A stretch of 64,000 nucleotides of DNA from Heterodontus francisci (Eukaryota): assembly GCF_036365525.1 (NCBI RefSeq), contig NW_027142032.1, forward strand, positions 434,001 to 498,000, in the 5' to 3' direction. Of this stretch, positions 21,235 through 63,368 are shown one piece after another. A program made the translations under genes and the position numbers. Every line of letters begins with the position of its first letter. The first letter of the stretch is position 1. The notes below the pieces were generated by a model that was not told the origin of the DNA, made no database searches, and was given only the letters and a program-made list of their open reading frames with translations.

Positions 21235-21618
21235 TAAATTCCTCTTAGTCTGAAGTGAAGCGCTTCTGAGCTGAAACCACAGGTTTCCGTTGCAAGCACT
21301 TCCTTTACTGTAAACTGTATTCTTATATATTGCCAAATTCTTTATTCATCAGTATTTCATTGATCTTCCCCAATCCATACAGCTTACATCTAATTGTGGT
21401 GTTCGTCACGGTTGGTCAACTCTCTATTAAAGGACTGGTTTCCAGTGAATTCAAACTCCATTCGATACTAATTATTTAGATGGCACTTCCTCCTTCAGTC
21501 TGCTGGAGCTGGACATATCACTGAAATAGAGATCGGCACGGTGGGCGGAGACTCATGTCCATGAACAACACAGTGCAGCAGATGCCGCTTATTCTTAACA
21601 TTTATTACATATTCCCCA
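21235..21618 (+). promoter_or_regulatory. Promoter plus leader-exon module, copy 1 (putative 5' end of the Ig-receptor pseudogene)
   Basis: ETS-like TTCCTCT (21239), RUNX-like AAACCACA (21274) and PU.1-like CACTTCCTC (21484). ATG at 21555 gives MSMNNTVQQMPLILNIYYIFP with a phase-1 GT at 21619. Homologous to modules at 34.2-34.6, 42.8-43.2 and 45.0-45.4 kb. Confidence 0.55.
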
Positions 21619-21879
21619 GTATTTTCAATTCACAATTCCTAACCTTAGTCCAACCATCCATTCCATAAAGGAACTCCGACTCTTGCATCGACATTCTATT
21701 CCATGGTTCATTATTCCTGTACTTCTTTCCTGATTATAATGTAGCCTTTGTGGATATAGACCACACAAGCTTTCTCCAATTACTGTTCTCCATGCTCTGA
21801 CTGTTTCACACTCACCTCTATGTCTTCCCATCTTCCATCCCAGGAAGTTCAAAATATTCTTTAAGGCATTCCATTATAA

Positions 21880-22550
21880 GTTTTAACGTCCCTCTGTGTC
21901 TGAAAGGCTCCCCTCATTTCAACACTAGTTCTTTTAACAACTATTATAAATCCTTTAGCTCTGCTTACCCGCCCATTTGCCAGAGGGAAACCTTTCTACC
22001 TAGTTGTTCCACCAAAGGCCTCATAATTTTCAATCCCTCCATTAAATTTCTCTCCAACCTGCTTTGCTCTAAGGAGAACATTCCCAGATTGTTCAATTTA
22101 TCCACATAACTGAAACCTCTCATCCCGGCTACCTTTCCAGTAAATCTCCTCCACACCCTCTCCAAGGGTTGACATGCTTTCTAAAGTGTGGTGCCCAGAA
22201 CTGAACACAATACTCCAGCTGAGGCCTAACCATTGATCTGCATTTCCTTTAGAAGAGCCTCCAGTTCCTTTGTACTTTGCATCTTTGTTTTTCTAAACAC
22301 GGGCCTTATCAGTTTTTGTTTTTACAGATTAAACAACTTTTCTCGCTATCTTATATGACTCTTCTATGTGAAATCTGTTCCTGGCTGCCCTCGAATATTT
22401 TATCAATTACTTTCCTCATTCGTCCTCCCGTAATTCATCACTTCATATTTTTATGCATTAGATGTCATTTATCGTGTGTCTGCCTATTTCACCACTCTGC
22501 CTGAGCTGACCTGAAGTCTGCTACTGACCTCCTCACTGCTTACTACAATT
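21880..22550 (-). mobile_element. Old CR1 LINE 3' remnant
   Basis: MERVWRRFTGKVAGMRGFSYVDKLNNLGMFSLEQ. Confidence 0.8.
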
Positions 22551-22649
22551 TCAAATTTATTACATTGCCAACCGGGCGACAAGTTAACTTGCTTTTTTGA
22601 AGCAGAAAATTAGCGAGAGACTGAAAGACAGAAGAAACAAGAGTTAAAA

Positions 22650-25520
22650 CATGTGCAGCCCAGGAATTTGGCAGTGTTAAAGGGTATTTATTTAAATGCA
22701 AGGAGTATAGTAAATAAAGCCGATGGGCTGAGGACAGAGATGGAGACATGACAACACGATATCGTTTTTATAACGGAAACATGGTGTAAAAAGGAACAAG
22801 AATGGCAACTCAACATCCCTGGGTATTGAGTTTTCAGGCGGCATAGAAAGTCAGATAAAAACGTAAGGGTTGGAGCCTTATAAGCTAAGGAATCAATAAC
22901 AGCTTTGAGAAGGCATGATATGCGAAATTAATCATCAAATGAGGCCATATGTGTGGAGCTCAGAAATAAAAAAGGGACAGCCACACTATTAGGAGTGTAC
23001 TACGGACCCCCAAATAGAGAAAGGGAGGTAGAAGAACAAATATGTAGACGCATTTCTGAGTGCAAATCTATCGGGCAACAATAGTTGGGGATTTCAACTT
23101 CCCTGATATCAACTGGGATGCAAACAGTGTGAGGGGCCCAGAGGGGACAACATTCTTGAAATGTTTTCAAGAGAACTATTTTAGCCAGCACGTAACAGGT
23201 CCAAAGAGGCTTAATCCTAGATTTAGTCTTCAGTAAAGAATCTGGGCAAGTGGATGAAGTAACAGTGGGTGGCAATTTTGGAGATAGCGACCATCATGGT
23301 AAGTTTTAGCATGATCATGGAAAAGGACAAAGAACAAACAGGAGTGACAGTTCCCAAATTGGGGAAGGCAAATTTTACGAAACTCGGAGTTCACCTGGCC
23401 AAAGTGGACTGGATGCAACTACTTGAAGGATAATCAGTGGCAAACCAGTATGAGGCATTGAAAAGCGAGATACTACAGGCACAGTATCGGCATGTCCCCA
23501 AAAAGATAAAGGGTGGTACAGCCAAATCCAGAGCCCCCTAGTTATCTAGAAGCTGACAGGGTAAGTTAAAGCAGTAACAGAAAGCTTATGATGATCACCA
23601 AAACCTTAATACTTTCGAAAGCCTGGAGGAATATAGAAAGTGCAGGGATGAAGTTATAAAGGAAATTAGAAATGCAAAGAGAGGACATGAAAAATTATTG
23701 CCAGGTAAAATCAAGGAAAACCCGAAGATGTTTAATCAGTACATTAAGAGCAAAATATAAGTAAGGTAAGGAAGGGTAAGACCGATCAAAGATGTACAAG
23801 GGAACTTATGCAGGGATGCAGAAGATGTGGGCAGTGTTATTAATGAGTTTTTTTCCTCTGTCTTCACAAAGTAGAGGGCTGATGTAGATATTGTAGTTAA
23901 AAAGGTGGAGCGTGCATAATGAGAGAGGAAGTACCAGAGGGTCTGTCATCCTTGAAAGTGGATAAATCGCCAAGGCCAGATGAATTCTGTCCCAGCTTGT
24001 TAAAGGAAGCCAGGGAGGAAATAGCGGATGTGCTGAGGGACATCTTAAAATCATCACTAGATATAGATGATTGGAGTTTTGTGAACGTTGTGCCATTGTT
24101 TAAAAAGGGTGCGAGGGATAGGCCAAATAATTATAGGCTGGCCAGTCTGACCTCAGTGGCGGGTAAATAGTTAGAATCTATTCTGAGGGACAGGATAAAT
24201 TGCCACTTAAAAAGCCGTGGATTACACAGGGTTAGTCAGCATGGATCTTTTAAGGGAAGGTCATGTCTTGCTAACTGAATTGTTCTTTTGAGGAAGTAAT
24301 AAGGAGGATTGATGAATATAGTGCGTGGATTGGTCGATTTGGATTTTAGTAAGGCATTTGACAAGGTCCTGCATGGCAGACTGGTCATAAAAATGCAAGC
24401 CCATGGGATGCAGGGGAATGTGGCTGTTTGGAACCAGAGTTGGCTCAGGGACAGGAAACAAAGGGTAGTTGTCAACACATGTTTTGTAAATGGAAAACTG
24501 TTTCCAATAGCGTTCTCCAGGGCTGAATGTTGGGTCCCTTGCTGTTTGTGTTATATATTAATGTTTTGGACTTAAATGTGGGAAGAATGATTGTGAAACT
24601 TGCTGATGACACAAAGATTGGCCGTGTAGCTGAGAGTGAAGAGGATAGCTGTAGGCTCCATAATGATATCAATGGTAAGATTGAGTGGGCGGTGAAGTGG
24701 CAAATGGAATTCAATCCAGATAAGTGTGAGGTAATGCATTTGGAGAGGGCAAATAAAGCGAGGGGATGCACAGTAAACGGGAGGATATTATGAGGGGCAG
24801 AATAAGTGAGAGACCTTGGAGTGCATGTCTCCGGGTCTATGAAGGTGGTGGGACAGGTAGATGGAGTGTTAAAGAAGGTATATGCAATGCTTTCCTTTAT
24901 TGGCCGAAGTATAGGAAACAAAAGCAGGGATGTAAAGCTGGAACTGTATAAAACGCTGGTTAGGCCACAGCTGGAGTATTGCGTACAGTTCTGGTTACCA
25001 CATTACAGAAAAGACATAATTGCTCTGGAAAGAGTACAGAGGAGATTTACAAGAATGTTGCCAGGGCTCGAACGTTGCAGCTATGTGAAAAGATTGGATA
25101 GGCTAGGGCTGTTTTCCTTATAACAGAAGAGGCTGATGGGTGACTTAATTGAGATGTACCAAATTATGAGAGGCCGAGATAGAGTAGACAAGAAGGACCT
25201 GTTTCCCTTGGTGGAGAGGCCAGTTAGCAGGGGGCACAGATTTAAGGTTGATAGGTAGAAGGATTAGAGGGGACATGAGGAAAAACGTTTTCACCCAGAG
25301 GGTGTGGGTCTCTGGAATTCACTGCCAAGAACAGTGATTGGGACAAGAAACCTTCAATTCTTTCAAAAGGTATCTGGACCTGCAATTGAAGTGATATAAC
25401 CGGTAAGACTCTTGATTAGGTGCTGGAAGGAGGGATTAGATTGGCTAGTTTTCTTTTCAGCCGGCATGGACACGATGGACTGAATGGCCTCTGTCTGTGT
25501 TGTAATTTTCTATGGTTCTA
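22650..25520 (+). mobile_element. CR1 LINE, near-complete degenerate ORF2 (endonuclease + RT) and 3' UTR
   Basis: Endonuclease start (YLNARSIVNK), GDFNFPDINW, DKSPRPD, DFSKAFDKV, KLADDTK, RPQLEYCVQFW and a (ctatggtt) tail. Many stops and frameshifts. Confidence 0.92.
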
Positions 25521-25549
25521 ATATCAATGCGGAAACTGAAAATGAACCC

Positions 25550-26860
25550 CCAAACAGGAGGAGAGCTTTCAGGCCATCGAGCCTGCCCGCCGTGGTTAAC
25601 CTGTGATCGACCTCCGTATACTCACCTTTTCCCCATATCTCTTAGCATCTTTAGTTAACTAAAATCTATCAATTTCAGATTAGTATTAATAATTTATTGA
25701 GCATCGATTTCCAATTGCAGAAGAGATTTCCAAACTTGAACTACTTTTGCCTGTTAATATCGGCTAATTTCACACCTGAAAGCTCTAATCTTTGACTATG
25801 CCTCCTAGTCTTAGACTCAACAACCAGCGGAGGTAAATATGTTCAATCTACCCAATCTGTTACCATTCATATCTTAAAAACTTCGATCAAATCAACTGTT
25901 AACCTTCTAATTTCCAGGGAATGCAGTCATAGTTAGCCTGATCTTTCCTTGTAATTTGACCCTTGTAGTCCAGGTATCACTCTGGTAAACCTACACTTCA
26001 CTCAATGCCAATATATCCTTTCTAAGGTGTGGTGCCCAGAACTGTTCACACTAACTCCAGGTGTGGTCTAACCAGGGCTTTGCACAGCAGAAGCATGACA
26101 TCTACTCATTTGTATTTTAGTGTTCGAAATGTAAAGGTCACTGCCCTGCATCTAGTCAAAGGAGCAAGGGAACAGGAAGAGGCCATTTAACACCTGGAAT
26201 TTGTTTTGTCATTGAATCAGATTATGGCTGTTCTTCCTCGAACACAACATTTCCACTTTTTCCCCAAATCCGTCAATATATTTAATTAATCTCAGATTTG
26301 AAATTTAGAATTAACCTTGCATCAATTTCTAATACCCTGCACATGCAAAAGTGTTTCTCAGCTTCACTCCTGAAAGACCTGATTCCAAATGTTGACTATA
26401 TTCCAGAGTCCTTACCCTCAATTATGTGGAGCAAGGGGAGAAGCTGGGGTTAATCTCCTTAACACAGAGAAAACTAAGAGGAGATTTGATAGAGGTGGTC
26501 AAACTGCTTGAAGTTGTTGATGGAGTTGATAATGAAAACAGTTCCCAATGGCAGAAGTGCCGGTAATCAGAGGCCACCGATTTAACTTGACTGGTAAAAG
26601 AACCAGAGACAACATAACGAAATATTTTTTACACATCGTTATGTTGTGATCTGGAATGAGCTTCCTAAAATCAAGGTGGAAGCAGATTCAATAGTAATTT
26701 TTAACACATAATCCGATAAGTCCGTGAATAGTTACAACACAGCTATGGGAAAAGAGCAGGGGAATGAGATTGATTACATAGCTCTATCAAAGAGACACTA
26801 CTAGCATGATGGGCCGAACAGCTTTCATTCTGTGGTATATAATTTTATGATCCTATGAAA
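25550..26860. mobile_element. Several old CR1 3' fragments in both orientations
   Basis: ggtgtggtgcccagaactg (minus) at ~26030; gaggagatttgatagaggtg...gatgggccgaa (plus) at 26480-26820. Confidence 0.65.
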
Positions 26861-27299
26861 AGTAATGTTGTTTGTTTAATCACTTCATCTCTTTTTTGTG
26901 TTTTGTTTGTGATTCGGAAGAGCACTTCTCAAGTGCTAACATCCCTCTCTAAAATCCTGATAAGAAGGAACTAATATCCTGTACTGTTAAATAATTCAGT
27001 TTGTCTTTATCACATTTAATTTCTGTGGCTGTGTCTAATTGTGTTGTGACATTGATAGCGGTGATGCAGGCTGGCATCTCAGCAGCTGCCATTGGGAAGG
27101 CATTGTAAGAAATGTGATTATTTGTGGACATTTCATCCATTTCCTTTCTCTCTTGAGGGTTACAGCACTGCGCACAACACCCCAGGTGGTACCAGATCGA
27201 TACTCTATTGAATATTATCATTAATATTAGATTTCTCTCAGTTAGACACACAATTCCTGAAATATGTAAATATGCAAATTCAATTAATTAAAATAAATC

Positions 27300-28168: not shown

Positions 28169-28462
28169 ATTGGCGAACACCACCAGTGACATTTCTTGAT
28201 CAACCAACTGGGGTGTATGCTGTTGCAGAGATGGTCGTCATTACCTGCACTGCGACCGGAGATAATCGGGATAAAACCATTTACTTTTACAGAGATGATC
28301 AACGGCTGTACACCGATCAAATCATCACAAAGGGCAACATTGGAACATTTCAGGTTGCTCGTGTAAACCAAGGAGGACGGTACCAATGTATATAGGTAAA
28401 ATACATCTAAGAGATGCTGTTAGGTTCCCAACTCAGAGAGGCTGTGACAGTGACTGTAGCAG
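28169..28462 (+). pseudogene. Ig-superfamily receptor pseudogene, Ig exon A
   Basis: Acceptor ttgcacag, then phase-1 DWRTPPVTFLDQPTGVYAVAEMVVITCTATG...TIYFYRD...GGRYQCI*VKYI*EMLLGSQLREAVTVTVA. Two Ig cysteines are present, with two in-frame stops and a lost donor. Confidence 0.8.
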
Positions 28463-29621: not shown

Positions 29622-29676
29622 ATTACCTCCAAAAACCATCAATATCCCTGGACCTTCCAGATAGAGTATTTGTGAA
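29622..29676 (+). pseudogene. Ig exon B, 5' half (cut by a transposon)
   Basis: YLQKPSISLDLPDRVFV is an Ig A-strand motif paralogous to the start of exon A. It ends at ATTTGTGAA where the transposon begins and continues in frame into 63368-63110 (-). Confidence 0.75.
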
Positions 29677-30707
29677 CAAAGTGATTCCTGACAACGCTGG
29701 CCAGCGCCGACGTCATCAGGCTGTGCCACGGTGCGCAGATGCGCAGACGGACTCCTGCACTCTGCGCATCCGCTGTGTTCCGGCTTGTCAGGACCCGTTT
29801 GCGCATGCGCTGGTGGCGTCATCGCGTTACGTTGTCTTCCTCGGACAACGGGCCAGGTTGGACTCTGCGCATGCGCTTCATGCAACGCCACCGGATATTC
29901 ACGCATGCGTCAATCTTCCGATATTCATGCATACGGAGCTGGAGGGAAAGGCTGAATGGAGAGGGCCGAATGGGAGAGGCCGTAGAGAGCCGCGGGGAGC
30001 GAGCGGCCGAAGACCTTGGTGTCGCCGGGTGCAGGGACTGGCCGCTAAGTCTTTTGCTGTTGTGTTTATGGCGCATGCACAGAAACGGGCATTCCTCTTC
30101 CGCTCCGCTGCTCCCCCCCACTCTCTCCCCTCCCCCCCGCTCCCTCCCTCTCTCTCCCTCCCTCTCTCTCCCTCCCTCTCTCAGCTCTTCCCCCTCCCTC
30201 CCTCAGCTCACCCCCTCAGCTCTCCCCCTCCCTCCCCAGCTCTCCCCCTCCCTCCCTTAGCTCTCCCCCTCCATCCCTCTCTCTCTCCCTCCCTCAGCTC
30301 TCCCCCTCCCTCCCTCAGCTCTCCCCCTCAGCTCTCCCCCTTCCCTCCCACAGCTCTCCCCTTCCCTCCCTCAGCTCTCCCCCTCAATCCCTCAGCTCTC
30401 CCCCACTTCCCTCCCTCCCTCAGCTCTGTCCCACCCATCCCCAACCCTCGTCGCCGCCACTGCTATCCCCGCGCTGGTCTCCCCGCCCCCCGCGCTGCTC
30501 ACCCCGGCCCGCTCCACTATCTCACTCCGGCCATTGTTTGCTGCCACGTATTTGTTAGGTTGCCTCTGTGTGGTTCTTCGACCAGCGGCATCTTGAGTCC
30601 TGGCAGCTGCTACAGTCGCAAGCTGTGACGTTTTAGTGGCACATGCTGTATTTGCGCATGTGCCAAAACAGCGCTACCTACCGATAGCGTTGTCAACAAA
30701 TGCAGTC
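29677..30707 (+). mobile_element. Non-autonomous DNA transposon with subterminal inverted repeats (Zisupton- or MULE-like), copy 1
   Basis: TGACAACGCT (29689) and AGCGTTGTCA (30686) each lie about 12 nt inside the ends. CpG-rich, with repeated GCGCATGCGC-like palindromes and an internal C-rich minisatellite. A second inverted copy starts at 63369, and an 8-9 bp TSD is recoverable from the split exon. Confidence 0.8.
30110..30430 (+). repeat. C-rich minisatellite (ccctcagctctccccct)n inside the transposon
   Basis: Direct inspection; the complementary G-rich array is at 63650-63980. Confidence 0.9.
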
Positions 30708-32520
30708 CATTGAAATTGGCCTTCCCCCAATTCAGTACCTTTATTTCCGGCCCGTCTTTGTCCTTTTCCATAACTAACTTAAATCTTACTGAATTTTGGT
30801 CACTGTCACCTAAATGCACCCCACCGACACTTCTGCCATTTGTCCAGCTTCGTATCCGAGGATTAGGTCCACGACTGCCCCTTCTCTTGTAGGACTTTCT
30901 ACGTACTGGCTCAAAAAGCTCTCCTGGATGCATTTTAACAACTCTGCCCCCTTTAAGCCTTTTACACTAAAACTATACCATTAAATATTCAGAAAGTTGA
31001 AATCCCCTGCTATTATTACCATATTATTATTGCACATCTCTGAAATTTGCCTCCATATCTGCTCCTCTATCTCACCCTGAATGTTTGGAGGCCTGTAGTG
31101 CACCCGCAGCCAACTGATTGCCCCCTTTTTGTTTTTAACTTCTACCTATACGGCCTCATTTGAGGAACCTTCAATGATATCGTCCCTCCTTACTGCAGTA
31201 ATTGACTCCTTGATCAGCAGTGCAACACCACCTCCTCTTTTATCCCCTCACCTTTCACGCCTAAAGTTTCGATATCCTGGAATATTAAGCTGCCAATCCT
31301 GCCCCTTTCTCAACCCTGTCTCTGTGATAGCATCAATATCATAATGCCATGTGCAAATCAACGCGCTCTATTCATCTGCCTTGCTAGCAAAACTCCTTGC
31401 ATTGAAATAGATGTAATCCAGCCTTACACTTTTCCCTTGTGCCTTAACAGGTCGATATTTGTTCTGCCTTCCAGCCTGACTCGGTTCTCTTCTGTATATG
31501 ACGGTGCATCACCCCCTACTGTACCTCCAGTCTGTATCCCATTCACCTGCCAAATGAGTTTAACCGCTCCCACCCCCAACCCCCCACCCACCACTTCCGT
31601 CACAGCACTAGCAAACCTCCACGCAAAAATGTTGGTCCCGTTCTGGTTCAGGTGCGACCCGTCCATCTTTTTCTTGACCACCTTTGCCAGAAACAGATTC
31701 AGTGATCCAGGAAACTAAAGCTCTCCCTCCTGCACCATCTCTTCAGCCACGTATACGTCTGCTCTATCCTCCTATTCTAATACTCCCTAGCACCTGGCTC
31801 CGGGGGTAATTCAGCGATTGCAACCTTTGAGGTCCTGCTTTTGAATCTGCTACCTAGCTCCCTAAATTCTTGCTGCAGGGCCTCATGCCACTTTCTACCT
31901 ATGTCATTGATAGCAATGTGAACCTCTGACTGTTCACCCTCCTCCTTTAGAATGTCCTGCAGCCTCTCCATGACATCCTTGACCCTAGCATCAGGGAGGC
32001 AACATATCATCCTGGAATGAAGTTTGCGGCCACACAAACTCCTATCTGTACCCCTTGAGATAGAACCCCCATCACTGCAGCACTTCCACTCTTTTTTTCT
32101 TCCCTGCTGTGCAGAAGAGCCATCCGTGGTGCCACGATCTTGGTTATTGCTGCTTTCCCCTGGGAGGTCACGCCCCCCAAACAGTATCCAAAGCGGTAGC
32201 GGTTTGAGAGGGGGATGGCCACAGGGGACTCCTGCACTACCTGCCTGCGTCAACTACTCTTCCTGGTAGTCACCCATCCATTTTCTGCCTGTGCAGCCTT
32301 TAGCTGCGGTGTGACCACCTCACTAAACGTGCTATCCACGACGTCCTCAATATCGCAGATGCTCCACGGTGAATCCACCTGCAACTCCAGCTCAGTAATG
32401 CGGGTAGCAAGTAGCTGCAGCTGGATCTACTTCCTACACACATCGTCGTCAGGGACACTGGAAGCTTTTCCCACATAGTGCAAAAGGGAAATATTACGAG
32501 GCTGAGCTGTCCTGCCATGA
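30708..32520 (-). mobile_element. CR1 LINE 5' half (ORF1 zinc-finger/esterase plus ORF2 endonuclease), truncated at the transposon end
   Basis: ORF1 MAGQLSLV..CTMWE and the esterase-like RGTDRSLCGRK..RMICCLPDARVKDV..NDIGRK. ORF2 HLGDSDQNSVRFKLVMEKDK..LNWGKANFNG stops exactly at 30708. Confidence 0.9.
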
Positions 32521-32827
32521 CTTACCCTTAGATTAATTAGTTACTCCCTTAATTAAAAAGATACTAATTACACAAAGGGCCTTGTTGTATTCCAAACGTT
32601 ACCCACTACAATCTAAATTACACTAATTAAAAAACAAAACAAACAAGGGTATTACTCACTTGAAGTCTTTTTTCAAACAAAAAAAAAACACTTTCTCTTA
32701 CTTTTTTTAGCTCTTATAATTGACTAGCAGCTGTTACTTACCCAACCAATCACATTGCAGATTTCCAGGGATGTTACTGTAAGTCTTTTTTCCCCTCTTC
32801 TTTGGAGTCTCAGAGCGTGCCCAGAGA

Positions 32828-33450
32828 CACATATAAATAGCGGGGCTACAAGAGCAGGTCAGAGGCTGGGAATACTGCGATGAGTAACTCACCTCCTGAA
32901 TCCCCAAAGCCTCTCCACAATCTACAAGGCACAAGTCAGAAGTGTGACGAAATGCTCTCCACTTGCCTGGGTGGGTGCAGCTCCAACAACACGCAAGAGG
33001 CTCGACACCATCCAGGACAAAGCAGCCCGTTTGATTGGCACCCCATCGCCACCTTCAAAATGCACCCCCTCCACCACGAATACACAATGGCAGCAGTATG
33101 TTCCTTTTACAAGATGCACTGTAGCAATCACCGAGGATCCTTCAACAGCACCGCCCAAGCCTGCGACCTCTACCACCTAGAAGGGCTAGGACCGCAGATG
33201 TATGGAAACACCACCACCTGAAAGTTTCCCTCCAAGGCACACACCATTCTGATATGGAGCTATATCGGGCATTGCTTCACTGTCACTGGGTCAAAATGCA
33301 AGAACTCCCTTCCTGACAGCACTCTGGGTGTACCTACCCCACACAGACTGCTGCGGTTCAAGAAGGCAGCTCACCACCATCTTCTCAAGGGCAATTAGGG
33401 ATGGGCAAAAAATACTGGCCTCGTCAGCGACGCCCACATCCCATGAAATA
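32828..33450 (+). mobile_element. L2/CR1-clade LINE (second family) 3' fragment
   Basis: SPLAWVGAAPTTRKRLDTIQDKAARLIG and the family 3' tail. Confidence 0.9.
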
Positions 33451-34059
33451 ATAGGGAAAGTAAAGCAATAGGCCATTCGCTCCAACTAGTCAGTACCATT
33501 GTTTGCACTCCACACCAGTCTCTTCCCACACTTTACACCTCATGTCTGCTTTTTACCCAGTCCTTCCACTCCATTGTCTCTCAGGCAATCACCCAAGATC
33601 AACTGGAATGAAGCTAAACAACTTCCTTCAACCACTTTCTGTGGTTGTGTGTTCCTCCTAGAAAAAAGGAGGAATATGTTTCCAATGACATGTCCGTTTT
33701 AACCACATTTAGAAACTGTAACTCACTGACAAAAGAACTAGAAGTGAAATGTGGAGAATAGTTTGACTCAGAGTGATGTTATGATCTGGAACTGAAAAGC
33801 CGGTGGAATCACATTCCATAGGAAGTTTCAAAAGGTGATTGAAAATGTGCTGGAAAAGTATGCAGGGATATGGGCAAATAAAAAGGATGTTGGACTAAAT
33901 TTGACAACTCTTAGACAGAGCAGAGGCTGTGAGATTCAATGATTCTAATAAAATGAGTACTTCGAGACGTCCATTTCTACATAGTATCAATAATCCATGG
34001 CGAATACCAAGACATGCTCTTGGTATGACACAAAACTGAGCTTCAGGTTGTTCAACTAC

Positions 34060-34630: not shown

Positions 34631-34869
34631 CACTGACAGTGACGCAGTGACTCAGAACCAACGGAGTCTGAAAATATATTCATTAGAATATCCACAGCCT
34701 TTGTAGCTAAATCTCTCCCCCTAATTTCTGTCTCCAAATCTCTTGAAAATGGTAATTCCCCAATGCCACCGCCCCCCCCACCCCCCTCCCACCACAGCCA
34801 CCATGAAGAAAAGCCCACCCCTCTATCTGATCATCTTTGAGTGCTGGTATTGTGTGAGTTAGATGTTTC

Positions 34870-50232: not shown

Positions 50233-50387
50233 NNNNNNNNNNNNNNNNNNNNNNNNNNNNNNNNNNNNNNNNNNNNNNNNNNNNNNNNNNNNNNNNNNNN
50301 NNNNNNNNNNNNNNNNNNNNNNNNNNNNNNNNNNNNNNNNNNNNNNNNNNNNNNNNNNNNNNNNNNNNNNNNNNNNNNNNNNNNNNN
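50233..50387. other. Assembly gap (N run)
   Basis: Run of 155 N. Confidence 1.
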
Positions 50388-50999: not shown

Positions 51000-51752
51000 A
51001 GAGTCATACAGTTATACATCACAGTTACAGGCCCTTCGGCCCATCGTTTCTGTGCCGGCCATCACATCCATTCTGATTCCATTGTCCAGCACTTGGCCCG
51101 CAGTCTTGTTGCTATGGCGTTTCAAGTGCTCGTCTAAATATTCCTAAATGTTATGAGAGTTCCTGCCTCACCATCTCTTCAGGAAGTGCGTTACAGATTC
51201 CAACCAGCCTCTAAGTGATTTTTCCCCTCAAAACGCCACTAAACCCCCTGCCACTTGCCTTAAATCTATGCCCCCTGTTTGTTGACCCCTTCGCTAAGGC
51301 AAAAAAATGTTTCTTCCTATCTAACCTACCAATGCCCCTCATAATTTTGTATACCTCAATCATGTCCCCCTCAGCCTTTTCTGCTCGAAGGAAAACAACC
51401 CTAGCCTTTTCAATCTCTCTTCATAGCTGAAATACTCCAGCCCAGGCAGCATCCTGCTGGATTTCCTCTGCACCATCTCCAGTGCAATCCAATCCTTCCT
51501 ATAGTGCAGTGCCCAGAATTGAACACAGTACTCCAGTTGTGGCCTAACTAGTGTTTTATACAGCTCCATCATAACGTTCCTGCTGTTACATTATATGCCT
51601 TTGCTAATAAAGGCAAGTATTCCATATGCCTTCTGAACCATCTTGTCGACCTGTTCTGCCTTCAGTGATCTGTGGACAAGTACACCAAGGTCCTTCTGAC
51701 CATCTGTACTTCCTAGGGTCCTACCATCTATTGTATATTCCCTTGCCTTGAT
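51000..51752 (-). mobile_element. CR1 LINE 3' fragment
   Basis: ELYKTLVRPQLEYCVQFWALHYRKD and CR1 tail. Confidence 0.9.
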
Positions 51753-53313
51753 GGATTACCACTGATATCTTACTGACATTAATAGCCTTTATAGCTATAC
51801 ATTATTGGAAAAAAAATCTTCCTGAGGGGGCCTAATTCCCTTTTCTATAACTGTTTTACAGTGTGTACATTTTTCAGCGAGCGTTCTGTGCGAAGCTTTG
51901 CTGTGACAATTTGCTATATGATTATTTCCCATTCAATTTTGCCATGTCAGTGTAATGACGCAGTTGCAGGTTTTGGCCACGAGTTAGCGCTCTGAAATAA
52001 AATTATATCTTCACTGAGGATAGGTCCCAGACCTGAAGTATTAACTCCACTTCTCTCTCCACAGATGCTGCCAGACCTGATGAGTATTTCCAGCACTTTC
52101 CATTTTAATTTCGGATTTCCATCTTCTGCAGTATTTTGCTGTATTATCTACCTTCACTTTCCCGAGTGAAAAGACTTCTTTAAGCCTCTCTAAACAACGT
52201 GTATCATCTGTTTACAGGGAATCCCCACTAATTATTGCCTCCCTTTATTAAAACCCCTATTTGTGTGTGAATTTTCAGTGCAGTTTCCAGTTGTCAGGAT
52301 TTTAGACCACACTACTGTGGTGGCATTTAACACAGCAACTAACTATGGAAGCAGTTACTTGTAATCATGAAAGTAGGGAAGCCTGGCTTGTCGTTATTAG
52401 GCATGTAGAATAACTGTTTATACTCTGTTGTGTTGTAGAATATGAAAAAAAAATTTGCAGCACCTGATGGTGTGCGGATTGGTGGCAATTAGTTCGTGAT
52501 GTCAAAGGTATGTTTTTTTTTCTCATTCTGTGTTTATCTGGTACTCTCAGAAACTCTGTCTTAGTTTTCTTCTCCCTGCCTGAAACAGTTAATGATTTAA
52601 TACATGCTAATGGATGAATTCCGTCATCAGGAATTCCTGCTTGAATTTTACTGAACTTCCTCTATTGGGATGATTTACATCGAGTCAATAAATATGGCTG
52701 TGTTGAAATCTTTTGGGGAGCCGAAGTGATTGTCACGATTTAATCTGTTTTTTAAAATATAAATATCATTCCAGATTCAGTACAGGATTGAAATGGATTT
52801 GAAGAATGTTGCAAATAGATGTAGGAGGGAACATAGACAACGCGTATTGGTGGAAACTGGGATGAAGTGTAAACTCTCAGGATTCTGTCGCAAGTGATAA
52901 TTGTAACTTGTTCTGTCAATATTAATAGAGTGAAAGATAATGTCATACAGATATGATCTGTGTTGACCATTTAAAGGGATTTGGAGATGGTCAATCTGAA
53001 TGAATTTAATTTGGCTATTATTTACAACTCTATAACTTTTAGATAGTTTCACCAATAGCCATCTTTCTGCTACGAATAATGAGTGAGGAATTAATGTATA
53101 TATCTTATGTTGAAGAGGAAAGTTACACAGCCCTTGATCTTTAGCATCAGGACAACCTTTAATTATAATGGTGACATTTAATAATGTCAAATTAATACTG
53201 CTTTATAGAATGGCGTGTAAAACAAGATCTTTCCCCTTCTGTATTTATTCCAATATGAAACTTTGCAGATATTCAGCAATTCGTCTATCATACCTTTGCT
53301 ATATTTCTTTGTC

Positions 53314-53669
53314 TTTTTTTTAGATTAGAGATACAGCACTGAAACAGGCCCTTCGGCCCACCGAGTCTGTGCCGAACATCAACCACCCATTTATACTAAT
53401 CCTACACTAATCCCATATTCCAACCAAACATCCCCACCTGTCCCTATATTTCCCTACCACCTACCTATACTAGTGACAATTTATCATGGCCAATTAACCT
53501 ATCAACCTGCAAGTCTTTTGGCTTGTAGGAGGAAACCGGAGCACCCGGAGAAAACCCACGCAGACACAGGGAGAACTTGCAAACTCCACACAGGCAGTAC
53601 CCGGAATCGAACCCGGGTCCCTGGAGCTGTGAGGCTGCGGTGCTAACCACTGCGCCACTGTGCCGCCCC
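53314..53669 (-). mobile_element. V-SINE (HE1-like), well preserved
   Basis: Complete head with A/B boxes (tggcgcagtgg; ggttcgattcc), V core, tail and terminal A run. Confidence 0.95.
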
Positions 53670-53711
53670 TTTTTAGCAATATTGATTCCACCTCCAGTTA
53701 ATATATCATGT

Positions 53712-53803
53712 TTAATCTATTCCCAGGATAACTGCAGTCTCAAAGAGGATGAAAGCGGAGAGACACAGACGATTTGGGATTGAATTGGATTTTAAAGAGA
53801 AAC
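53712..53803 (-). pseudogene. Candidate transmembrane exon of the Ig receptor (Arg-containing TM)
   Basis: Strong acceptor ttctgttccttctatattcttccag, then phase-1 GFSLKSNSIPNRLCLSAFILFETAVILGID*. Same strand and phase as the upstream Ig exons. Confidence 0.45.
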
Positions 53804-54210
53804 CTGGAAGAATATAGAAGGAACAGAATGTTAATGTGAATTTTCTCATACTTCCACCGCAATGACTAATAGAGACTTTTTCGGAAATCCTTTATAACAT
53901 TCAACGCACAAAGACAGGAATACCCTGATATTCGGAGGGAACATGAATGATCATTTTTTGGCAGATCTTTAATCTCCCTCTATTTCTCGTTGTCATTCAC
54001 TCTGCACAAACTGGAGTAATAATCCGGAAGCCTGTAACCAATGGTCCAGAGATATGAACTCATAACCCTCCAGAGAAGCTGTGAGAATTTAAATTCAATG
54101 ACTACATAAACCTGGAATAAAAATGTTTGTATCAGTAATGGGGATGGTGAAAATACCAGCTTGTAATAAAAGCCCATCTAGTTAACTGATGTTAGTGAGG
54201 GAATGAAAAC

Positions 54211-55228
54211 AGCATTCCGAAGGGATCGTTCCCTCCGCGACACCCTGGACCACTCCTCCATTACCCCCACCACCTCGTCCCCGTCCCAGGGCACCTTCCC
54301 CTGCAATCGCAGGAGGTGTAATACCTGCCCATTTACCTCCTCTCTCCTCACTATCCCAGGCCCCAAACACTCCTTTCAGGTGAAGCAGCGATTTACTTGT
54401 ACTTCTTTCAATGTAGTATACTGTATTCGCTGCTCACAGTGTGGTCTCCTCTACATTGGGGAGACCAAGCGCAGACTGGGTGACCGCTTTGCGGAACATC
54501 TCCGCTCAGTCCGCATGCAGGACCCTGAGCTTCCGGTTGCTTGCCATTTCAACACTCCCCCCTGCTCTCATGCTCACATCTCTGTCCTGGGATTGCTGCA
54601 GTGTTCCAGTGAACATCAACGCAAGATCCAGGAACAGCATCTCATCTACCGATTAGGCACACTACAGCCTGCAGGACTGAACATTGAGTTCAATAATTTC
54701 AGAGCATGACAGCCCCCCATTGTACTTTCATTTTTAGTCATTTTTAGTTATTTTTTCTTCCTTTTTTTTACATTCCTTTTTACATTTTTTACAATTTGTT
54801 TTGCATTAATTTCATTTCATCTTAGTTTGTTCAGTTTGCTTACCCACTGTTTTTTTTCAGGTTGTTTTTCTTCAGGTTTGCACTTGCTGCTGTTCAATAT
54901 TCAGTGTATTCACACCTAATCTGTACTAATGCTTTGTCTTTCAACACACCATTAACATATTGTTTGCCTTTGCTCCGTGACCTTTTGGTCAGCTATGTGG
55001 CCTGGTCCAATCTGCACCTTCTCCTTTGTTATCTCTTGCCCAACCCCCACCTCACTTGTTTATAATCTGTGACTTTTCTAATATTTGTCAGTTCCGAAGA
55101 AGGGTCACTGACCCGAAACGTTAACTCTGCTTCTCTTTCCACAGATGCTGCCAGACCTGCTGAGTGATTCCAGCATTTCTTGTTTTTGTTTCAGATTTCC
55201 AGCAGCCGCAGTATTTTGCTTCTATTTT
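54211..55228 (+). mobile_element. Penelope-like element 3' portion with open GIY-YIG endonuclease frame, inserted in a SINE
   Basis: ORF to 54709 reads CNRRRCNTC...VVYCIRCSQCGLLYIGETKRRLGDRFAEH...GLNIEF. Flanked by direct repeats AATGAAAAC (54202-54210 and 55229-55237). Confidence 0.92.
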
Positions 55229-56704
55229 AATGAAAACTGCCAACCTGGCTTGGTCTGGCCGACATGTGCCACGGTTCCAGAACAATGACTTTGACTCTCA
55301 ACTACCCTCCTAAATGGCCAAGCAAGTCACTCAGTGATGGACAATAAATGCTGGTTTTGTCAACGAGGCTCATCACACCCCACAATTTAAATTAAAATAG
55401 CGAGAGCGAGGCAGCTCACAAAATCTCCATTTTGTTGGTGGTAAAATCAAATTTGTATCACAGTGACAACACCGCCTTCATAGATTCCATGTTCAATGGA
55501 TAACTACGATCTTATTTGATGGAAATTGCTCCCATAAATATTTGGACAACAAATATAAGATTTACTGCACAAACAATTTCTCAAAATTTAAATAGTTTCA
55601 GGGAGAGGGCAGTTGACTGACTCCTACATTTAACAACAATTTAATACCTGCCTCTCAACGAAATTAGCAAGTAATTGACAACACATACTACAGTCTAGAG
55701 TGCTAATGGGAAAATGTAATAACCGAATGAGAGTAGTTCCTTCAATTCTGTAACACATCACATCATTGAATGTGGCTTATATTCTCTGCCTTGGTTCTTA
55801 AATGTAAGTATCCCAAATGCCTTCCTTACCACCTTATCACCCTGTGCAGCTGCCTTCAGTGATCTATGGACATGTACACCAAGATCCCTCTGACCCTCTG
55901 TACTTCCTCGGGTCCTACCATCCATTGCATATTTCCTTGCCCTTTTAGTCCTCCCAAAATTAAACCTTACGTTTCTCAGGATTAAATTCCATTAATTTTC
56001 ATTTGTTATTTGGGGTGATGTATAAGTATAGGAAGGAAGCACATTCATGTTAAAACAAAAGACACATGCTGGCGTAAATTTAGCCAAATGCACAATGCGG
56101 AAACAGGATGAGATCCGGTCGGCCGCCCATTTTACGCCCGACCCAATTTTCTGCTGACTATCAGTTGCTGCCTACAATGGGCGGCTGAGCTAAAAGCTCC
56201 CTTTTTGTGGCACCACCAGAGAAGGCTTTCGAGCCCAGAAGGTCCCTGAATTACATCACTACTCAGTGGGTCTCTCAGATGTGGAATACAGCATTCCTTC
56301 AGTACTGACTTATAATAGCAGTTGTAACAATCACAAGTTTAAACTCGATTAAAGTCAATGGAGGGTAAAATCTGATGGCGATGAAACTGGACACAGAGCA
56401 GAATTCACCTCGTTCCTGTTTGAAGGGTTTGGTTAAGATCTCTGCCCAGACTGTGATCTCATGTTCCTCGTCGGGTATCAATTCACAGAATTCCAGCGCA
56501 ATGCAGTACACATTTTAACAATACCCTATAATGGGCGTTAATTACTATGATACTGTTTTAAATGTCAGAGAATATTCCATTCCAATGCCTTTGATGGGAA
56601 ATAATGGAACAGGACGTAGAACAGTCGACTGATTCACCTTCAACCTCCTCTGCCTCCTCCTGCAGTCACCAGCATAACAGATGCCAGTCTTCAGCCAATC
56701 CTAT

Positions 56705-59257
56705 TCATAGAAACATAGAAAATAGGAGTAGGAGTCGGCCATTCGGTCCTCAGAGCCTGCTCCGCCATTCATTATGATCATGGCTGATCATTCAACTCAA
56801 TAACCTGTTCCCGCTTTCCCGCCACTTCCTCTGATCCCTTTCGCCCCAAGAGCTGTATCTAACTCCTTTTTGAAAACATGCAATGTTTTGTCCTCAACTA
56901 CTTTCTGAAGTAGCGAATTGCACAGGCTCACCGCTCTCTGGGTGAAGAAATTTCTCCTCATCTCAGTCCTGAAAGGTTTATCCCGTATCCTTAGATTACG
57001 ACCCCTGGTTCTGGACAACCCCACCATCGGGAACATCCTTCCTGCATATACCCTGTCAGGTCCTGTTAGAATTTTATAGGTTTCAATGAGATCACACTCA
57101 GTCTTCTGAACGCCAGCGAATATAATCCTAACTCACTCAATCTCTCCTCATACGTCAGTCTGGCCATCCCAGGAATCAACCTGCACTGCACTCCCACTAT
57201 AGCAAGAACATCCTTCCTCAGGTAAGGAGACCAAAACTACGCACAATATTTCAGGTGTGGCCTCACCAAGGCCCTGTATAATTGCAGCAATACATCCCTT
57301 GTCCTGTACTTGAATCCTCTCGCTGTGGAGGCCAACATATCATTTGTTCTTTTTACCACCTGTTGCACCTGCATGCTTACCTTCAGCGACTGGTGTACGA
57401 GAACACCCAGGTCTCGTTGCATATTCCTCTCTCTCAGATAATAGCCGTTCAGATAATAATCTGCCTTCCTGTTTTTGCTACCAAAGTGGATTACCACTTA
57501 TCCACATTATACTGCATCTTCCTGCATTTGCCTACTCTCTCAACTTGTCCAAATCACCCTGAAGCCTCTCTGCACCCTCCTCACAACTCACTCTCCCACC
57601 CAGTTTTGTGTCATCTGCAAATTTAGAGATATTACATTTAGTTCCCTCATCTAAATCATTAATGTATATTGTGATTAGCTGGGGTCATTGCACCGATTCC
57701 TTATGGCACCCCACAAGCCATTCGGAAAAAGACAAGTATTTTTCCCACTCTTTGTTTCCTGTCTGCCAAACAATTTTCCATCCATCGCAATGCACTGCCC
57801 CAATCCCATGCGATTTAATCTTATGTGGGTCTTTGTCGAAAGCCTTCTGAAAGTCCAAATGAACCACATCCACTGGCATCCCCTCATCAACTCTACTCGT
57901 TACATCCTCGAAGAGTTCTTGTAGATTTGTCAAGCATGATTTCCCTTTCATAAATCCGTGCTGACTCTGTCCGATTCGACCACTGTTCTCCAACTGCTCT
58001 GCTATAAAATCTTTGATAATGGAATCTAGAATTTTCCTCACTACTGACGTCAGGCTGACTGGTCTATAATTCCCCGTTTTCCCTTTCCCTCCCTTTGTAA
58101 TTAGTAAGGTTACATTAGCTTCCTGCCAATCTGTAGGAACTGTCCCAGAGTCTATAGAATCATGAAAGATGACCACCAATGCATCCATTATTTCTCAGAC
58201 AACTTCCTTAAGTACACAAGGTTGTAGATTATCAGGTCCTGGGGATTTATCGGCCTTCAATCCCATCAATTTCCCCAACACAATTTCTCTACCAATATTG
58301 ATTTCTTTCAGTCAGGGAGACAGTGGCGTAATGGTAATCTCATTGGACTGGTTGCCCAGGATAATGCTCTTGGGAAGTGTTATCGAATCCCACCACGGTA
58401 GATGGTGAAATTCGAATTCAATTAATAAATTTGGAATTAAAAAGCTAGTCCAGTGTGACCTTGGAATCGTTGTCGATTGTTGTAAAAATCCATCTCGCTC
58501 ACTAATGCCCTTTATGGAAGAAAATCTGCTGTGCTTACCTGGTCTGGCCTATATGTGATGACAGGTACACAGCAATGTGGTTGACTCTTAAAATGCACTC
58601 TGAAGTGGTCTCTCAGGCAATTAGGGATGGGAAGTAAATGCTGGCCAAGCCAGCGACGCCCATATCCCATGAACGAATAAAAAAAAGTTCCTCCCTCTCA
58701 TTAAACCCTGTGTTCCCCAACAGTTCTGGGATGTTATTTGTGTCCTCGTTTGTGAAGACAGAACCAAAGTATGCATTTTTTTGTTCGGCAATTTCTTTGT
58801 TCCCCATAATAAATTCCCCTGTTTATGACTGTAAGGGACCTATATATGTCTTCACCAATCTTTTTCTCTTCACATACCTATAGAAACATTTACTGTCAGT
58901 GTTTATGTTCCCCACAAGCTCACTCTCGTACTCTATTTTCCCCTTCGTAATCAATCCCTTGCTCCTCCTTTGCTGAATTCTAAACGGCTCCCAATCCTCA
59001 GATCTAATGTTATCTCTAGTTTCTCTTGTGAGCCATCGTTTGGCTATCTTTCCCGTTTTACTTTTGCACCAGACAGGAATAAACAATTGTTGCAATTCAT
59101 CCATGCTCTCTTTGAATGTTTGCCATTGCCTATCCACCGTAATCCCTTTAAGTAACGTTTCCCAATCCCTCATAGGCAACTCGCGCCTCATACCTTCATA
59201 GTTTCCTTTACTAAGATTCTGGACCGTAGTCTCAGAATCAACTACATCACTCTCCAT
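56705..59257 (-). mobile_element. CR1 LINE (another subfamily), degenerate, interrupted by a SINE
   Basis: GNYRPVSLTSVV, QHGFMKGKSCLTNL, LDFQKAFDK, RPHLKYC and RRNFFTQR. Confidence 0.92.
58313..58687 (+). mobile_element. SINE (second family), near full length
   Basis: tRNA-like head gggagacagtggcgtaatggt...tcgaatccc, core ggaagaaaatctgctgtgcttacctggtctggcc, tail identical in type to the L2-like LINE 3' end, and an A run. Confidence 0.88.
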
Positions 59258-59260
59258 ATT

Positions 59261-59606
59261 GGTGGCACAGTAGCGCAGTCGTTAGCACCACAGCCTCACA
59301 GCTCCAGCGACCTGGGTTCAAATCTGGGTACTGCCTGTGTGGAGTTTGCAAGTTCTCCCTGTGTCTGCGTGGGTTTTCTCCGGGTGCTCCGGTTTCCTCC
59401 CACAAGCCAAATGACTTGCAGGTTGGTAGGTAAATTGGCCATTATAAATTGCCCCTAGTATAGGTAGCTGGCAAGGAAATATAGGGACAGGTTGGGATGT
59501 GGTAGGAATATGGGATTAGTGTAGGATTAGTATAAATGGGTGGTTGATGGTCAGCACACACTCGGTGGGCCGAAGGGCCTGTTTCAGTGCTGTATCTCTA
59601 AACTAA
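59261..59606 (+). mobile_element. V-SINE (HE1-like)
   Basis: Head, V core and tail. Confidence 0.93.
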
Positions 59607-59620
59607 ATTCTGTCATATTA

Positions 59621-61058
59621 CTCACGTGATACCAAGAAACGTCTGAAAGCACTGTTTACTGCAAAAGCTATGGGCCCTAACAACATTCTAGCAATATTAC
59701 TGAAGACCTGTGCTCCAGATCTAGCCTCACCTCTAGCCAAACAGTTGAAGTACCACGAAAACACTGTCATCGACCTGCAAATGTAGAAAATCGTCCAGGG
59801 ATGCCCTGTGCACAAAAAGCAGGACAAATCCAATCTGGCCAATTACATCCCCATCAGTCAACTCTAAATGATCAGTGAAGTGTTGGAAGCTGCCATTAAC
59901 AGTGCTATCAAGCAGCATTTGCTTAGCAAGAACCTATTCTGTGACGCTCAGTTAGGGTTCCGCCAGGACCACCCAGCTCCTCACATCATTACCGCCTTGG
60001 TTCAAACATGAACACACGATATTAACTCAAGGGGCGAGGTGCGAGAGACTGCCCTTGACATCAAGGCAGCATTTGACTGAGTATGAGGGTGCGGTTATTG
60101 GAGGTCAATCATCTCAGCTCCAGGAAATCACTGCAGGGTTTCCTCAGGGTAGTACCCTGGTCCCAACCATCTTCAGCTGCTTCATCAATGACCTTCCTTC
60201 AATCATAAGGACAGAAGTAGGGATGTCAGCTGATGATTGCACAATGGTCAACACCAGTCACGACTACTCAAATGCTGAAGCAGCCCATGTCCATATGCAG
60301 CAAGACCTGGACAACAATCAGTCTTGGTGTGACAAGTGGCAAGTAACATTCGCGCCACACAAGTGCCAGGCAATGGCCATCTCCATAAAAAGGGAATCTA
60401 ACCATCTCCCCTTGACATTCAATGGCATTGCAATCACTGAATCGCCCTCCACCAACATCTTGGGGTTAAGCATTGACCTGCAACTGAACTGCACCAGCCA
60501 TATTAATACCATGGCGAGGAATCCTGCTGCAACTAACTCATCCCTGACTGCTCAAAGCCTATGCACCATCTACAATGCACAAGTCAGGAGTGTGATGGAG
60601 ACTCTCCACTTGCTTGGATGGGTGCAGCTCCAGAAACATTCAAGGAGCTCGATACCATCCAGGACAAAGCAGAACGCTTGATTGGCTCCCCATCCACAAT
60701 CGTTCACTCCCTCCCCCACCGACGCACTATAGCAACACACCAAGAGTCCTTCGACAGCATGTTCCAAACACACAACCTCCAGCAGCCAGAAGGACAAGGG
60801 CAGCAGATGCAAGGGAACACAAACAGCTCCAAGTTCCCCTCCAAGGTGCACACCATCCTGACCTGGAACTATATCATCGATCGTTCACTGTCGCTGGGTC
60901 AAAATTCTGGAACTCCCTTCCGAACAGCACTGTGCATGTATGTGCCCCACATGACTGCAGCAGTTTGAGAAGGAAACGCACCACCACCTTCTCAAGGGCA
61001 GTAAGGGAAGAGCAATAAATGCTGGTCTAACCAATGATGCCCACATCCCATCAATGAA
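59621..61058 (+). mobile_element. L2/CR1-clade LINE (second family) RT and 3' end, degenerate
   Basis: GFPQGSTLVPTIFSCFINDLP..MSADDCT, WCDKWQVTFAPHKC and the family tail. Confidence 0.9.
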
Positions 61059-61315
61059 TACAAAATCAGTTTTCTCTGGTTCCCGGGATGCATTTCCCCC
61101 CTCAAACCCTTATCAGCTGTAGATTGCCATCGGTTGAATTTAGACCCAATGTGACAGGGCTCAGATCGAAAGTTAAGCTTTGAGTTAAAAAAAAAAAACT
61201 TCCACTGTATTGTTCTCACTTCATATTAAACCATTGATTGTGTTACAGTGAATGCAGCATGACTTTTGGAAAATATTAACATCTTTGAGAAAGGTTATCG
61301 ATTCTCTTTACTCAC

Positions 61316-61590: not shown

Positions 61591-62399
61591 CTGTAGCAAA
61601 ATAAAATGAAAGAAGAGTAACAAATGGATGTTTGAATTTTCAAGTACAGTACATATTGATAAAACAATACCGAGTGCACTGCATTGAAGGGAAGTGGGCT
61701 GAGATTCAACAGAAGGAGTTTTCAAGATTTGTTACAAATGAAACGAAAAAACAGAGTTTGCATTTCTGTAGCTCATCCCATGAACTCAGAAGGTCCCAAA
61801 GCACTTTACAGCTAAGTTAGGTAGTTAGGTTGTTAGGTCATGAATTTTAAGATTTTGATCTATCAGCGATGATGCTAGAATGATACATATCTAATTCAGG
61901 ACGGTGTGTGACTTGGAGGGGAACGTTAAGGTGATGGTGTTCCTCTGCATCTGCTGCCCTTGCCCTTCTTGGTGTTGGAGGTCGCGTGTTTTGGAGGTGC
62001 TGCTAAAATGCAATCTCCTGAGATACATGGAAACACCCCAATGTAATGACATTAAAATATTGGGCTTTGCGAGATAATTTTGAAAATCTCGGTCTACAGA
62101 TTCCCTTCGCTAACAGAGGAACCTGTGGTCGGATCAGGGCACACAGAATGGAGGTGACTCTTGAAATAACACTGCACAAAGAGGGATTTAATCCCTGTTG
62201 CCGTGTTGTCAGTGTGAACCTAAATGTTGATAATTCAGACATGTCGGGGTAAAATTGGTCTTGGACCAATTTGGAGCGGATTGTAATAATTCGGTTTTAC
62301 ATTCCTATTTCAATTGTAAACACAGTCAGGTGGTGTCTAAGACGGGCAGCAGAATCATTACCCCCCACTTTGCAATAGACTTAGCAGACATTTCAGCAT

Positions 62400-63045
62400 C
62401 GGATATTGTCAGAGCAAACAATTAAGAAGGTAGAGGGTATGTTGTAATTTGGTTCAACGGGATTGGAGTACAAGAATAAAGGAATCGTACTGCAATTTTA
62501 CAGGGCATTTCAGAGGCACACCTGGATTACCGCGTGCAGTCTTGGACTATTTACTTAAGAAGGGATAGACCTGTCCTACAGGGTGGGCGATGAAGGTCCA
62601 CTAGACTGGCTGATGGGTGAGGAGATTGTCCAATGTGAAGAGATTGAGTCGACTAGACAGGAGTTTAGGATAAGAAGAGGCGATCTCCCTGAAACTGAAA
62701 TGTCTTAAGCTGCTGCACATTATAGGTGCTGAGGGAATGTTTACCCAGGCTGGAGAATCTAGACAAAGTGTCACAGTCACAAAATACATGATCAGCCATT
62801 CCACAGTGAGATGAGGAACACTTTCGTCACCCAGAGTGTTGTGAATCTTTGTAATTCTCTACCCCAGAGGTTTGTGGATGGTTAGTCATTGACTATATTC
62901 AAACAGAGGTCGATAGATTTTTGGGTACTGAGGGAATTAAGGGATATGGGCAGAGTGTGGGAAGGTGGAGTTGAGTAGAAGATCAGCCATGCGCAAATTG
63001 AATGACAGAGCAAGCTGGAAGCACCGAAGAACCTCCTCCTGCTCC
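62400..63045 (+). mobile_element. Old CR1 LINE 3' remnant
   Basis: cacctggattaccgcgtgcagtcttgg and gagatgaggaacactttcgtcacccagagtgttgtgaatct. Confidence 0.75.
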
Positions 63046-63109
63046 AATACGTATGTTTTTATGTTCAACAATGTCCTATGTTATTAGCGTGAAAGATATT
63101 GAACCTCAC

Positions 63110-63368
63110 CCGCAACCGGTAACTTCACGGTATCGCTTAGATCTGAGATGATCTCCCTTCTGACACTGTCTTTCTGTAAACACAGCAGTAATCTACTGAC
63201 CCGGGAGACACCAGGTCTGTGATGTCAAAGATAACCCAATATGCAGATAGATTGGCTGTGCCTGTTCTGATTAGCTCTTTTTGGCTTCCTATGTACAAAG
63301 AGAATCTGCTTCCTGAATCTGAAGACGTTGCTTCACAGGTAAACCTGACTGACTCTCCTTTCACAAAT
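63110..63368 (-). pseudogene. Ig exon B, 3' half
   Basis: FVKGESVRFTCEATSSDSGSRFSLYIG...VIFDITDLVSPGSVDYCCVYRKTVSEG/IISDLSDTVKLPVA, ending at g|gtgag, with one frameshift. Begins with ATTTGTGAA directly after the transposon end. Confidence 0.82.

Follow-up and report, generated by a model that had tools for sequence, protein, structure and literature searches.

We found that a 64,000-nucleotide stretch of the Heterodontus francisci genome (hereafter the window; contig C1986, positions 434001-498000, within an assembly of 6.0 Gb) carries a broken, likely activating member of a large family of paired immunoglobulin (Ig) receptors of sharks and rays, which probably belongs to the lineage of the leukocyte receptor complex (LRC; LILR, OSCAR and KIR). 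Three genuine Ig exons and a genuine transmembrane (TM) exon that encodes an Arg make up one pseudogene. The locus itself is an ordinary dead gene, and its importance rests with the family.

Exons and lesions of the window gene

Six-frame reading verified Ig exon A, both pieces of exon B, exon C and the TM exon (Table 1) at the positions given by a first-pass annotation of the same DNA, together with the peptide motifs quoted there; the TM Arg and the inverted exon order that it described were also present. Exon A reached the Pfam Ig_3 family at cut-off (31.1 bits). Because of this match, and because a collinear uninverted copy of the gene lies on contig C45, the exon matches of the window are not due to chance. 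Exons A and C, proposed earlier to be paralogs, shared 67% DNA identity across 411 bp (E 1e-25). The stops in exon A, the split and 1-nt deletion in exon B and the frame-breaking indels in exon C bore out the view that the gene is now a pseudogene, and the window copy had no open frame with the splice sites of a functional gene. The window TM peptide matched nothing in PDB or Pfam.

No E-type (membrane-proximal) domain exon was found between exon C and the TM exon in the window. Since an E-type domain preceded the TM in all five TM-bearing paralog regions read, we infer that the window gene likely lost its D and E exons. The three Ig exons of the annotation therefore stand, but the gene probably once had more than three.

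Repeats resembling LINEs and SINEs were dense at window positions 2100-16200, 22000-26100, 30713-46400 and 51000-61100, many of them in several copies inside the window, and a stretch of N occupied positions 50233-50387.

Table 1. Features of the window, with positions counted from its first nucleotide.
Feature	Position	Strand	Description
Signal-peptide exon 1	21114-21144	+	Intact; 31 coding nt ending in phase 1, with a GTGAGT donor
Signal-peptide exon 2	26901-26933	+	33 nt; both splice sites lost in the window
Ig exon A, C2-type	28169-28462	+	Stops at 28393 and 28408; no GT donor
Ig exon B, 5' piece	29622-29676	+	AG acceptor lost
Inserted element, copy 1	29677-30707	+	1031 bp; splits exon B; absent from the C45 duplicate
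Inverted segment	30708-63368	-	32.7 kb; flanked by the two element copies
Exon 1 of the next family gene	46995-46965	-	Separated by the distal breakpoint from the remaining exons of that gene
TM exon	53803-53712	-	Arg, acidic end and directly following stop; intact acceptor; has lost the Asn of NxxR
Ig exon C, A-type paralog	61590-61316	-	AG and GT intact; several frame-breaking indels relative to an open paralog
Ig exon B, 3' piece	63368-63110	-	1-nt deletion; donor intact
Inserted element, copy 2	63369-64000	-	94.6% identical to copy 1; runs about 410 bases beyond the window

Signal-peptide exons

The first signal-peptide exon was located by a genome search with the N-terminus of full-length relatives, and it matched the N-terminus of the database proteins P0009 and P0010. 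Its GTGAGT donor was present in all eight distinct copies, and the AG and GT of the second exon were intact in two of the four paralogs examined. This split leader replaces the one that the annotation had placed at 21555-21618 (+), which is not a conserved exon: its GT donor was present in only 4 of 18 distinct aligned copies, namely the window and its closest duplicates, its ATG was present in 10 of the 18, and the position was unaligned in 5. The segment is part of intronic or upstream sequence that is repeated near family genes.

The surroundings of this false leader (window 21400-21680) were tandemly repeated near family genes, including those at C45:16.83-17.03 Mb, with a spacing of about 2.3 kb on C45 and five copies in the stretch L113. 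The repeat carries ACTTCCT motifs, which we take to be like ETS/PU.1 sites, and it is possibly regulatory.

The C45 counterpart of the severed exon 1 in the inverted segment preceded a five-Ig gene. Another intact-looking family exon 1 lay at C1986:433813-433843, some 160-190 bases ahead of the start of the window, and the interval from there to window position 21114 yielded no Ig exon.

Insertion, inversion and duplication of the window segment

The inserted element is likely a non-autonomous DNA transposon; in copy 1, an inverted motif of 10 bp lies 12 nt in from either end. A 9-bp target duplication, ATTTGTGAA, ended the 5' piece of exon B (29668-29676) and started the 3' piece; this length presumably points to a Mutator-like element. 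An uninverted duplicate at C45:19947194-19964186 matched the window at 91.5-95.3% in the exon-holding blocks. It contained no element, a single copy of the 9-mer and a contiguous exon B, and all of its exons lay on one strand in the order leader-A-B-C-TM, although this copy is itself broken too.

The window segment 30708-63368 was collinear with the C45 copy from 19955887 down to 19925010, with 19925010 corresponding to window position 30709, indicating that the segment is inverted. The element split exon B first, and the 32.7 kb were inverted afterwards. Either transposition or recombination between two separate insertions may have produced the inversion. A clean reciprocal inversion was unsupported, because the DNA beyond element copy 2 did not continue the C45 sequence and no clear second target duplication was seen. 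An arrangement of two gene copies head to head was also rejected, given that the 9 kb following the window showed no exon A or 5' piece of exon B and that the collinear C45 copy contradicts it.

The inverted form occurred at seven places, which were 97.3-99.7% alike and some of which may be haplotypic duplicates. An assembly artefact is therefore unlikely, and the element insertion and the inversion appear to predate these duplications. The window copy would thus have died before its segment was duplicated to the seven places.

The receptor family in the Heterodontus genome

In genome searches with the B-, A- and E-type domains, 150 of 236, 383 and 502 candidates, respectively, were scored, and 147, 150 and 150 of the 150 matched. 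Each query thus recovered the multigene family suggested by the annotation, with no fewer than 147-150 matching exons; these counts are lower bounds, and many of the matches contain stops or are duplicated. The matches were distributed over contigs C19, C21, C22, C23, C39, C41, C42, C45, C46, C50 and C51 and over unplaced contigs.

Paralogs with open frames, which the annotation had thought possible elsewhere in the genome, were found as well. The gene at C1986:551-574 kb (about 55-75 kb past the window end) had seven open Ig exons with AG/GT splice sites and in phase, one broken exon among them, and an NLIR-containing TM exon after the Ig exons; its leader was not located. The gene adjoining the C45 duplicate had exons A-B-C-D-E and a TM exon with NLIR, and some of its splice sites were damaged. 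The NLIR form was found in these two genes and in the duplicates of the C1986 gene, and the window TM is without the Asn. In these paralogs a homologous Arg TM exon followed the Ig exons; neither an unrelated TM or a secreted form among the paralogs nor clustering of the domains with non-immune Ig-superfamily (IgSF) proteins was observed. Uncharged TM exons and a first tail exon were also present, so that both TM types (Arg and uncharged) exist in this genome.

Many open, divergent Ig exons of like type formed long arrays at C45:2.9, 3.7, 8.2-8.7 and 14.9-15.1 Mb and on C619. These divergent arrays are further undescribed subfamilies.

Relatives in other sharks and rays

Relatives were found in eight genera of sharks and rays (Heptranchias, Cetorhinus, Scyliorhinus, Mustelus, Carcharodon, Mobula, Pristis and Hemitrygon), a range that accords with the origin of the window DNA from a cartilaginous fish. 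Within this one family the automatic names of P0007-P0041 were inconsistent (FCRL5, LILRA3, KIR3DL1, OSCAR-like and IGSF1-like), and excerpts of PMC6557307 describe such names as unreliable for receptor families of this kind. These relatives showed 64-66% identity in the E domain and had leader, TM and tail types alike; B-type domains occurred in few of them, and none of the 218 candidates passed in a search for long proteins with the B domain. A TM was present in 25 of the 35 relatives, of the Arg type in 4 of these 25 and accompanied by ITIM-like tails in 13. All four Arg TMs kept the Arg, but without the Asn of NxxR, and the window TM was 61% identical to that of P0010 over 23 residues. Judged from these sequences, the family is paired, with putatively activating (Arg TM) and putatively inhibitory (ITIM) forms that share ectodomains. 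The annotation's activating-receptor family is accordingly right as to the Arg-TM members, but the family is not activating only.

Several relatives (P0047, P0062, P0086, P0093, P0120, P0126 and others) appeared by eye to start with an SRCR-like part joined to Ig domains, and P0115 and P0120 had an Arg TM with an acidic end.

Synteny with LRC markers

LRC marker names were inferred from Pfam families. Nine of twelve marker searches located a marker, and one of these nine markers lay near a family gene; the searches for RPS9, DNAAF3 and CCDC106 were blank and are uninformative. The marker near a family gene was a tweety gene on C45, at a distance of 130 kb. Three tweety genes were present, on C24, C26 and C45. 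By eye, the C24 gene corresponds to TTYH3 and the C26 gene to TTYH2; the latter adjoins a CDC42EP gene and TMC genes, neighbours that we would expect of TTYH2. The C45 gene is TTYH1 by elimination only, and of the three tweety types TTYH1 is the one to which its two exons score lowest, behind TTYH3 and TTYH2. C45 also carries many divergent clusters of like Ig exons between 2.9 and 15.1 Mb.

Matches of the LENG8, LENG9 and CDC42EP types lay on the unplaced contig C813, arranged as at the centre of the human LRC (gene order from excerpts of PMC8562567). A TSEN34-type match lay on C637, PRPF31 and TMC on C275 (both unplaced), CNOT3 on C41 and RPL28 on C47. No Ig exon was found in 16 stretches of C637, which holds TSEN34, CDC42EP and LENG9, and the stretches read showed no family receptors in the interval from TSEN34 to CDC42EP/LENG9. 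C813 showed no overlap with C45:16.29-16.47 Mb, where a run of N occupies C45:16452261-16452460. LENG9- and CDC42EP-type genes occurred on both C637 and C813 with equal scores, and TSEN34-type exons occurred twice on C637; this doubling is either a duplication or haplotype overlap.

Lineage of the domains

Fold and sequence searches favored LILR, PIR, OSCAR and KIR for two of the three domain types and FCRL5 for the third. In a PDB search with the E domain, the six best matches were PIR-B, LILRB1 (twice), LILRA6, LILRB3 and LILRB2 (E 1e-6 to 5e-5). For a model of the B-type domain (pLDDT 81), OSCAR held ranks 1, 2 and 8 in the fold search at modest E-values (1.5e-4 and up), and LILRA5, LILRB4, CHIR-AB1, LAIR1 and LILRB1 stood in the first 17 among nanobodies and PECAM-1; no Fc receptor was among the rows listed to rank 50. 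For a model of P0010 (pLDDT 71), PirB and LILR took 9 of the first 10 ranks and Fc-gamma-RI came at rank 11, with all TM-scores low. By sequence, on the other hand, FCRL5, CSF1R and Fc-epsilon-RI were ahead of KIR for the B domain. RNase matches of the B profile in PDB were taken as spurious; FCRL4 came next.

Other features of the TM and tail were in keeping with an LRC family. Excerpts of PMC6557307 describe the LRC activating TM as having an Arg, an Asn three residues before it and an acidic C-terminal end, and treat NxxR as the most conserved LRC element, common also to Xenopus FCRL and SLAM receptors. The NLIR paralogs have such a TM, a feature that is not specific to the LRC, and the 13 ITIM-bearing relatives represent the paired inhibitory forms of an LRC-type family. 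The LRC-like identity given in the annotation is therefore retained in part: the closest experimental structures belong to immune receptors, chiefly those of the LRC, but LRC membership is likely rather than proven, because the A-type profile is best to FCRL5 and the NxxR TM is not LRC-specific.

The tree comprised 93 domains from 13 chosen proteins, the genome exons and the window A and B pieces, with exon C omitted and with no bona fide FCRL reference. The window domains fell in shark-only clades (100/95 and 98/97), deep forks were open, and the E-type and opossum domains grouped at 90/83, below the support threshold. These clades, like the scatter of the family across many contigs, would suit an independent expansion within elasmobranchs, starting from a C2-type ancestor that predates the LRC/FCRL split (HIDE1/C19orf38-like), mosaic and orthologous to neither group. 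All three domain types passed the Pfam HIDE1 Ig cut-off, and the Atlas neighbours were a mix of MILR1, OSCAR, HIDE1 and LILRA. We nevertheless regard this reading as unlikely in view of the consistent LRC ranking by fold, the tweety linkage on C45 and the results of a B-profile search of 1.84 billion proteins. That search gave 491 matches at E 0.001; ten matches named from the best 150 of them came from two rays, two sharks, two teleosts, a frog, two turtles and an opossum, with five named IGSF1-like, among them the opossum protein, and one named FCRL5.

Similarly improbable is an origin of the same pseudogene and paired design in the FCRL/LITR lineage, with an NxxR TM like that of Xenopus XFL (excerpts of PMC2413239). 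The A-type profile was best to FCRL5 in PDB (81.7 bits, against 58.5 for titin and only about 20 for CHIR-AB1 and LILRA2), FCRL5 and Fc-epsilon-RI led the sequence comparison of the B type, and many relatives are automatically named FCRL5. Yet the FCRL5 scores add up contributions from many domains of one chain, the automatic names are of the unreliable kind noted above, and the E domain and the fold searches put LILR, PIR and other LRC members first. In addition, the leader of 31 + 33 nt differs from the 30 + 21 bp of FcR-family leader exons, to which, according to the available text of PMC2413239, only a fraction of XFL genes conform.

A non-immune adhesion or secreted IgSF protein, with the hydrophobic exon a chance match, is very improbable and largely refuted: Robo2 and SYG-2 came first in single-sequence searches with the window A piece and titin was high in profile searches, but the paired Arg-TM and ITIM forms, the birth-and-death multigene pattern and the homology of the TM exon to the TM of full-length proteins all argue against it.

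Adaptor chain and proposed signalling

FcR-gamma was not found by two genome searches, in which a short divergent exon could be missed, and excerpts of PMC4016189 likewise report that none was found in sharks. The single zeta/gamma-type TM exon found (C10:79534735-79534836; 1 of 59 and 1 of 1 candidates) scored 44.7 bits to CD3-zeta, its nearer relation, and 35.3 bits to FcR-gamma. In catfish, LITR 2.6b binds both FcR-gamma and a CD3-zeta-like chain (excerpts of PMC4810170), and XFL NxxR receptors associate with FcR-gamma (excerpts of PMC2413239). Given the failure to find FcR-gamma, the one CD3-zeta-like exon and the catfish precedent, we propose a zeta-like chain as the likeliest partner. 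The annotation's comparison with FcR-gamma-coupled receptors holds for the Arg and the near-absent tail of the TM, but coupling to FcR-gamma itself is doubtful.

The pairing of Arg TMs with ITAM adaptors is established for LILRA, FCAR, GPVI and NKp46. By analogy, intact Arg-TM members of the LRC-like shark family would sit on leukocytes and bind ligand through their Ig domains, and the TM Arg may hold an ITAM adaptor of the zeta/gamma family, most likely a CD3-zeta-like chain. Their ITIM-bearing twins would bind like ligands and recruit phosphatases of the SHP type (SHP-1/2), and the family would turn over by birth and death.

Discussion

The shark family and the LRC receptors (LILRA/LILRB, PIR, OSCAR, KIR, CHIR and Xenopus LRC-related receptors) are alike in being multigene and paired, with C2-type Ig domains that are each encoded by a single phase-1 exon, a two-exon leader, an Arg TM with an acidic end and a short tail, NxxR in the paralogs of this genome and two-ITIM inhibitory forms, and LRC members are the best fold matches. 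The shark family differs in its shark-specific domain subtypes at about 20-25% identity, the better score of its A type to FCRL5, the lack of a DYT motif, the FcR-gamma searches that found none, and a second leader exon of 33 nt, whereas that of LILR and KIR has 36 nt. With FCRL, XFL and LITR it has in common the paired design, a variable number of Ig domains and A and B domains similar to FCRL5; the FCRL type differs in its 30/21 leader and in folds that rank below LRC members. The NxxR TM is shared with XFL (excerpts of PMC2413239), and the stimulatory LITR 2.6b has a Lys in place of the Arg (excerpts of PMC4810170).

Excerpts of a 2014 report (PMC4016189) state that neither LRC-type genes nor FcR-gamma were found in sharks, and those of PMC8562567 date the LILR system from ray-finned fish. 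Sharks are not mentioned in the available portion of PMC6557307, and the text matches in that of PMC4701786 were author names alone. No description of the shark/ray paired family was found in the literature, with partial coverage of subscription journals; family proteins are already in databases under automatic LRC or FCRL names. A 2021 study in Immunogenetics reportedly treated LRC- and FcR-like regions in fish and may bear on novelty.

We advance one further scheme tentatively, as a possibility that is less likely than not to be right in full: cartilaginous fishes may have a true TTYH1-linked LRC on C45 with divergent subfamilies, one of which spread to hundreds of paired-receptor exons, and NxxR receptors may be older than FcR-gamma, signalling via CD3-zeta or an unduplicated zeta/gamma chain. 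If this is true, both the LRC and the TM that typifies it go back to the earliest jawed vertebrates, contrary to the 2014 report as excerpted (PMC4016189).

The shark/ray paired family, with its NxxR and ITIM forms, provides clonable candidates and raises the adaptor question of CD3-zeta in place of FcR-gamma. It addresses the question of the germline NK/myeloid receptors of sharks and offers a handle on the LRC/FCRL split. An LRC-like paired family in these fishes would trace immune control of this kind back to the time when jawed vertebrates arose.
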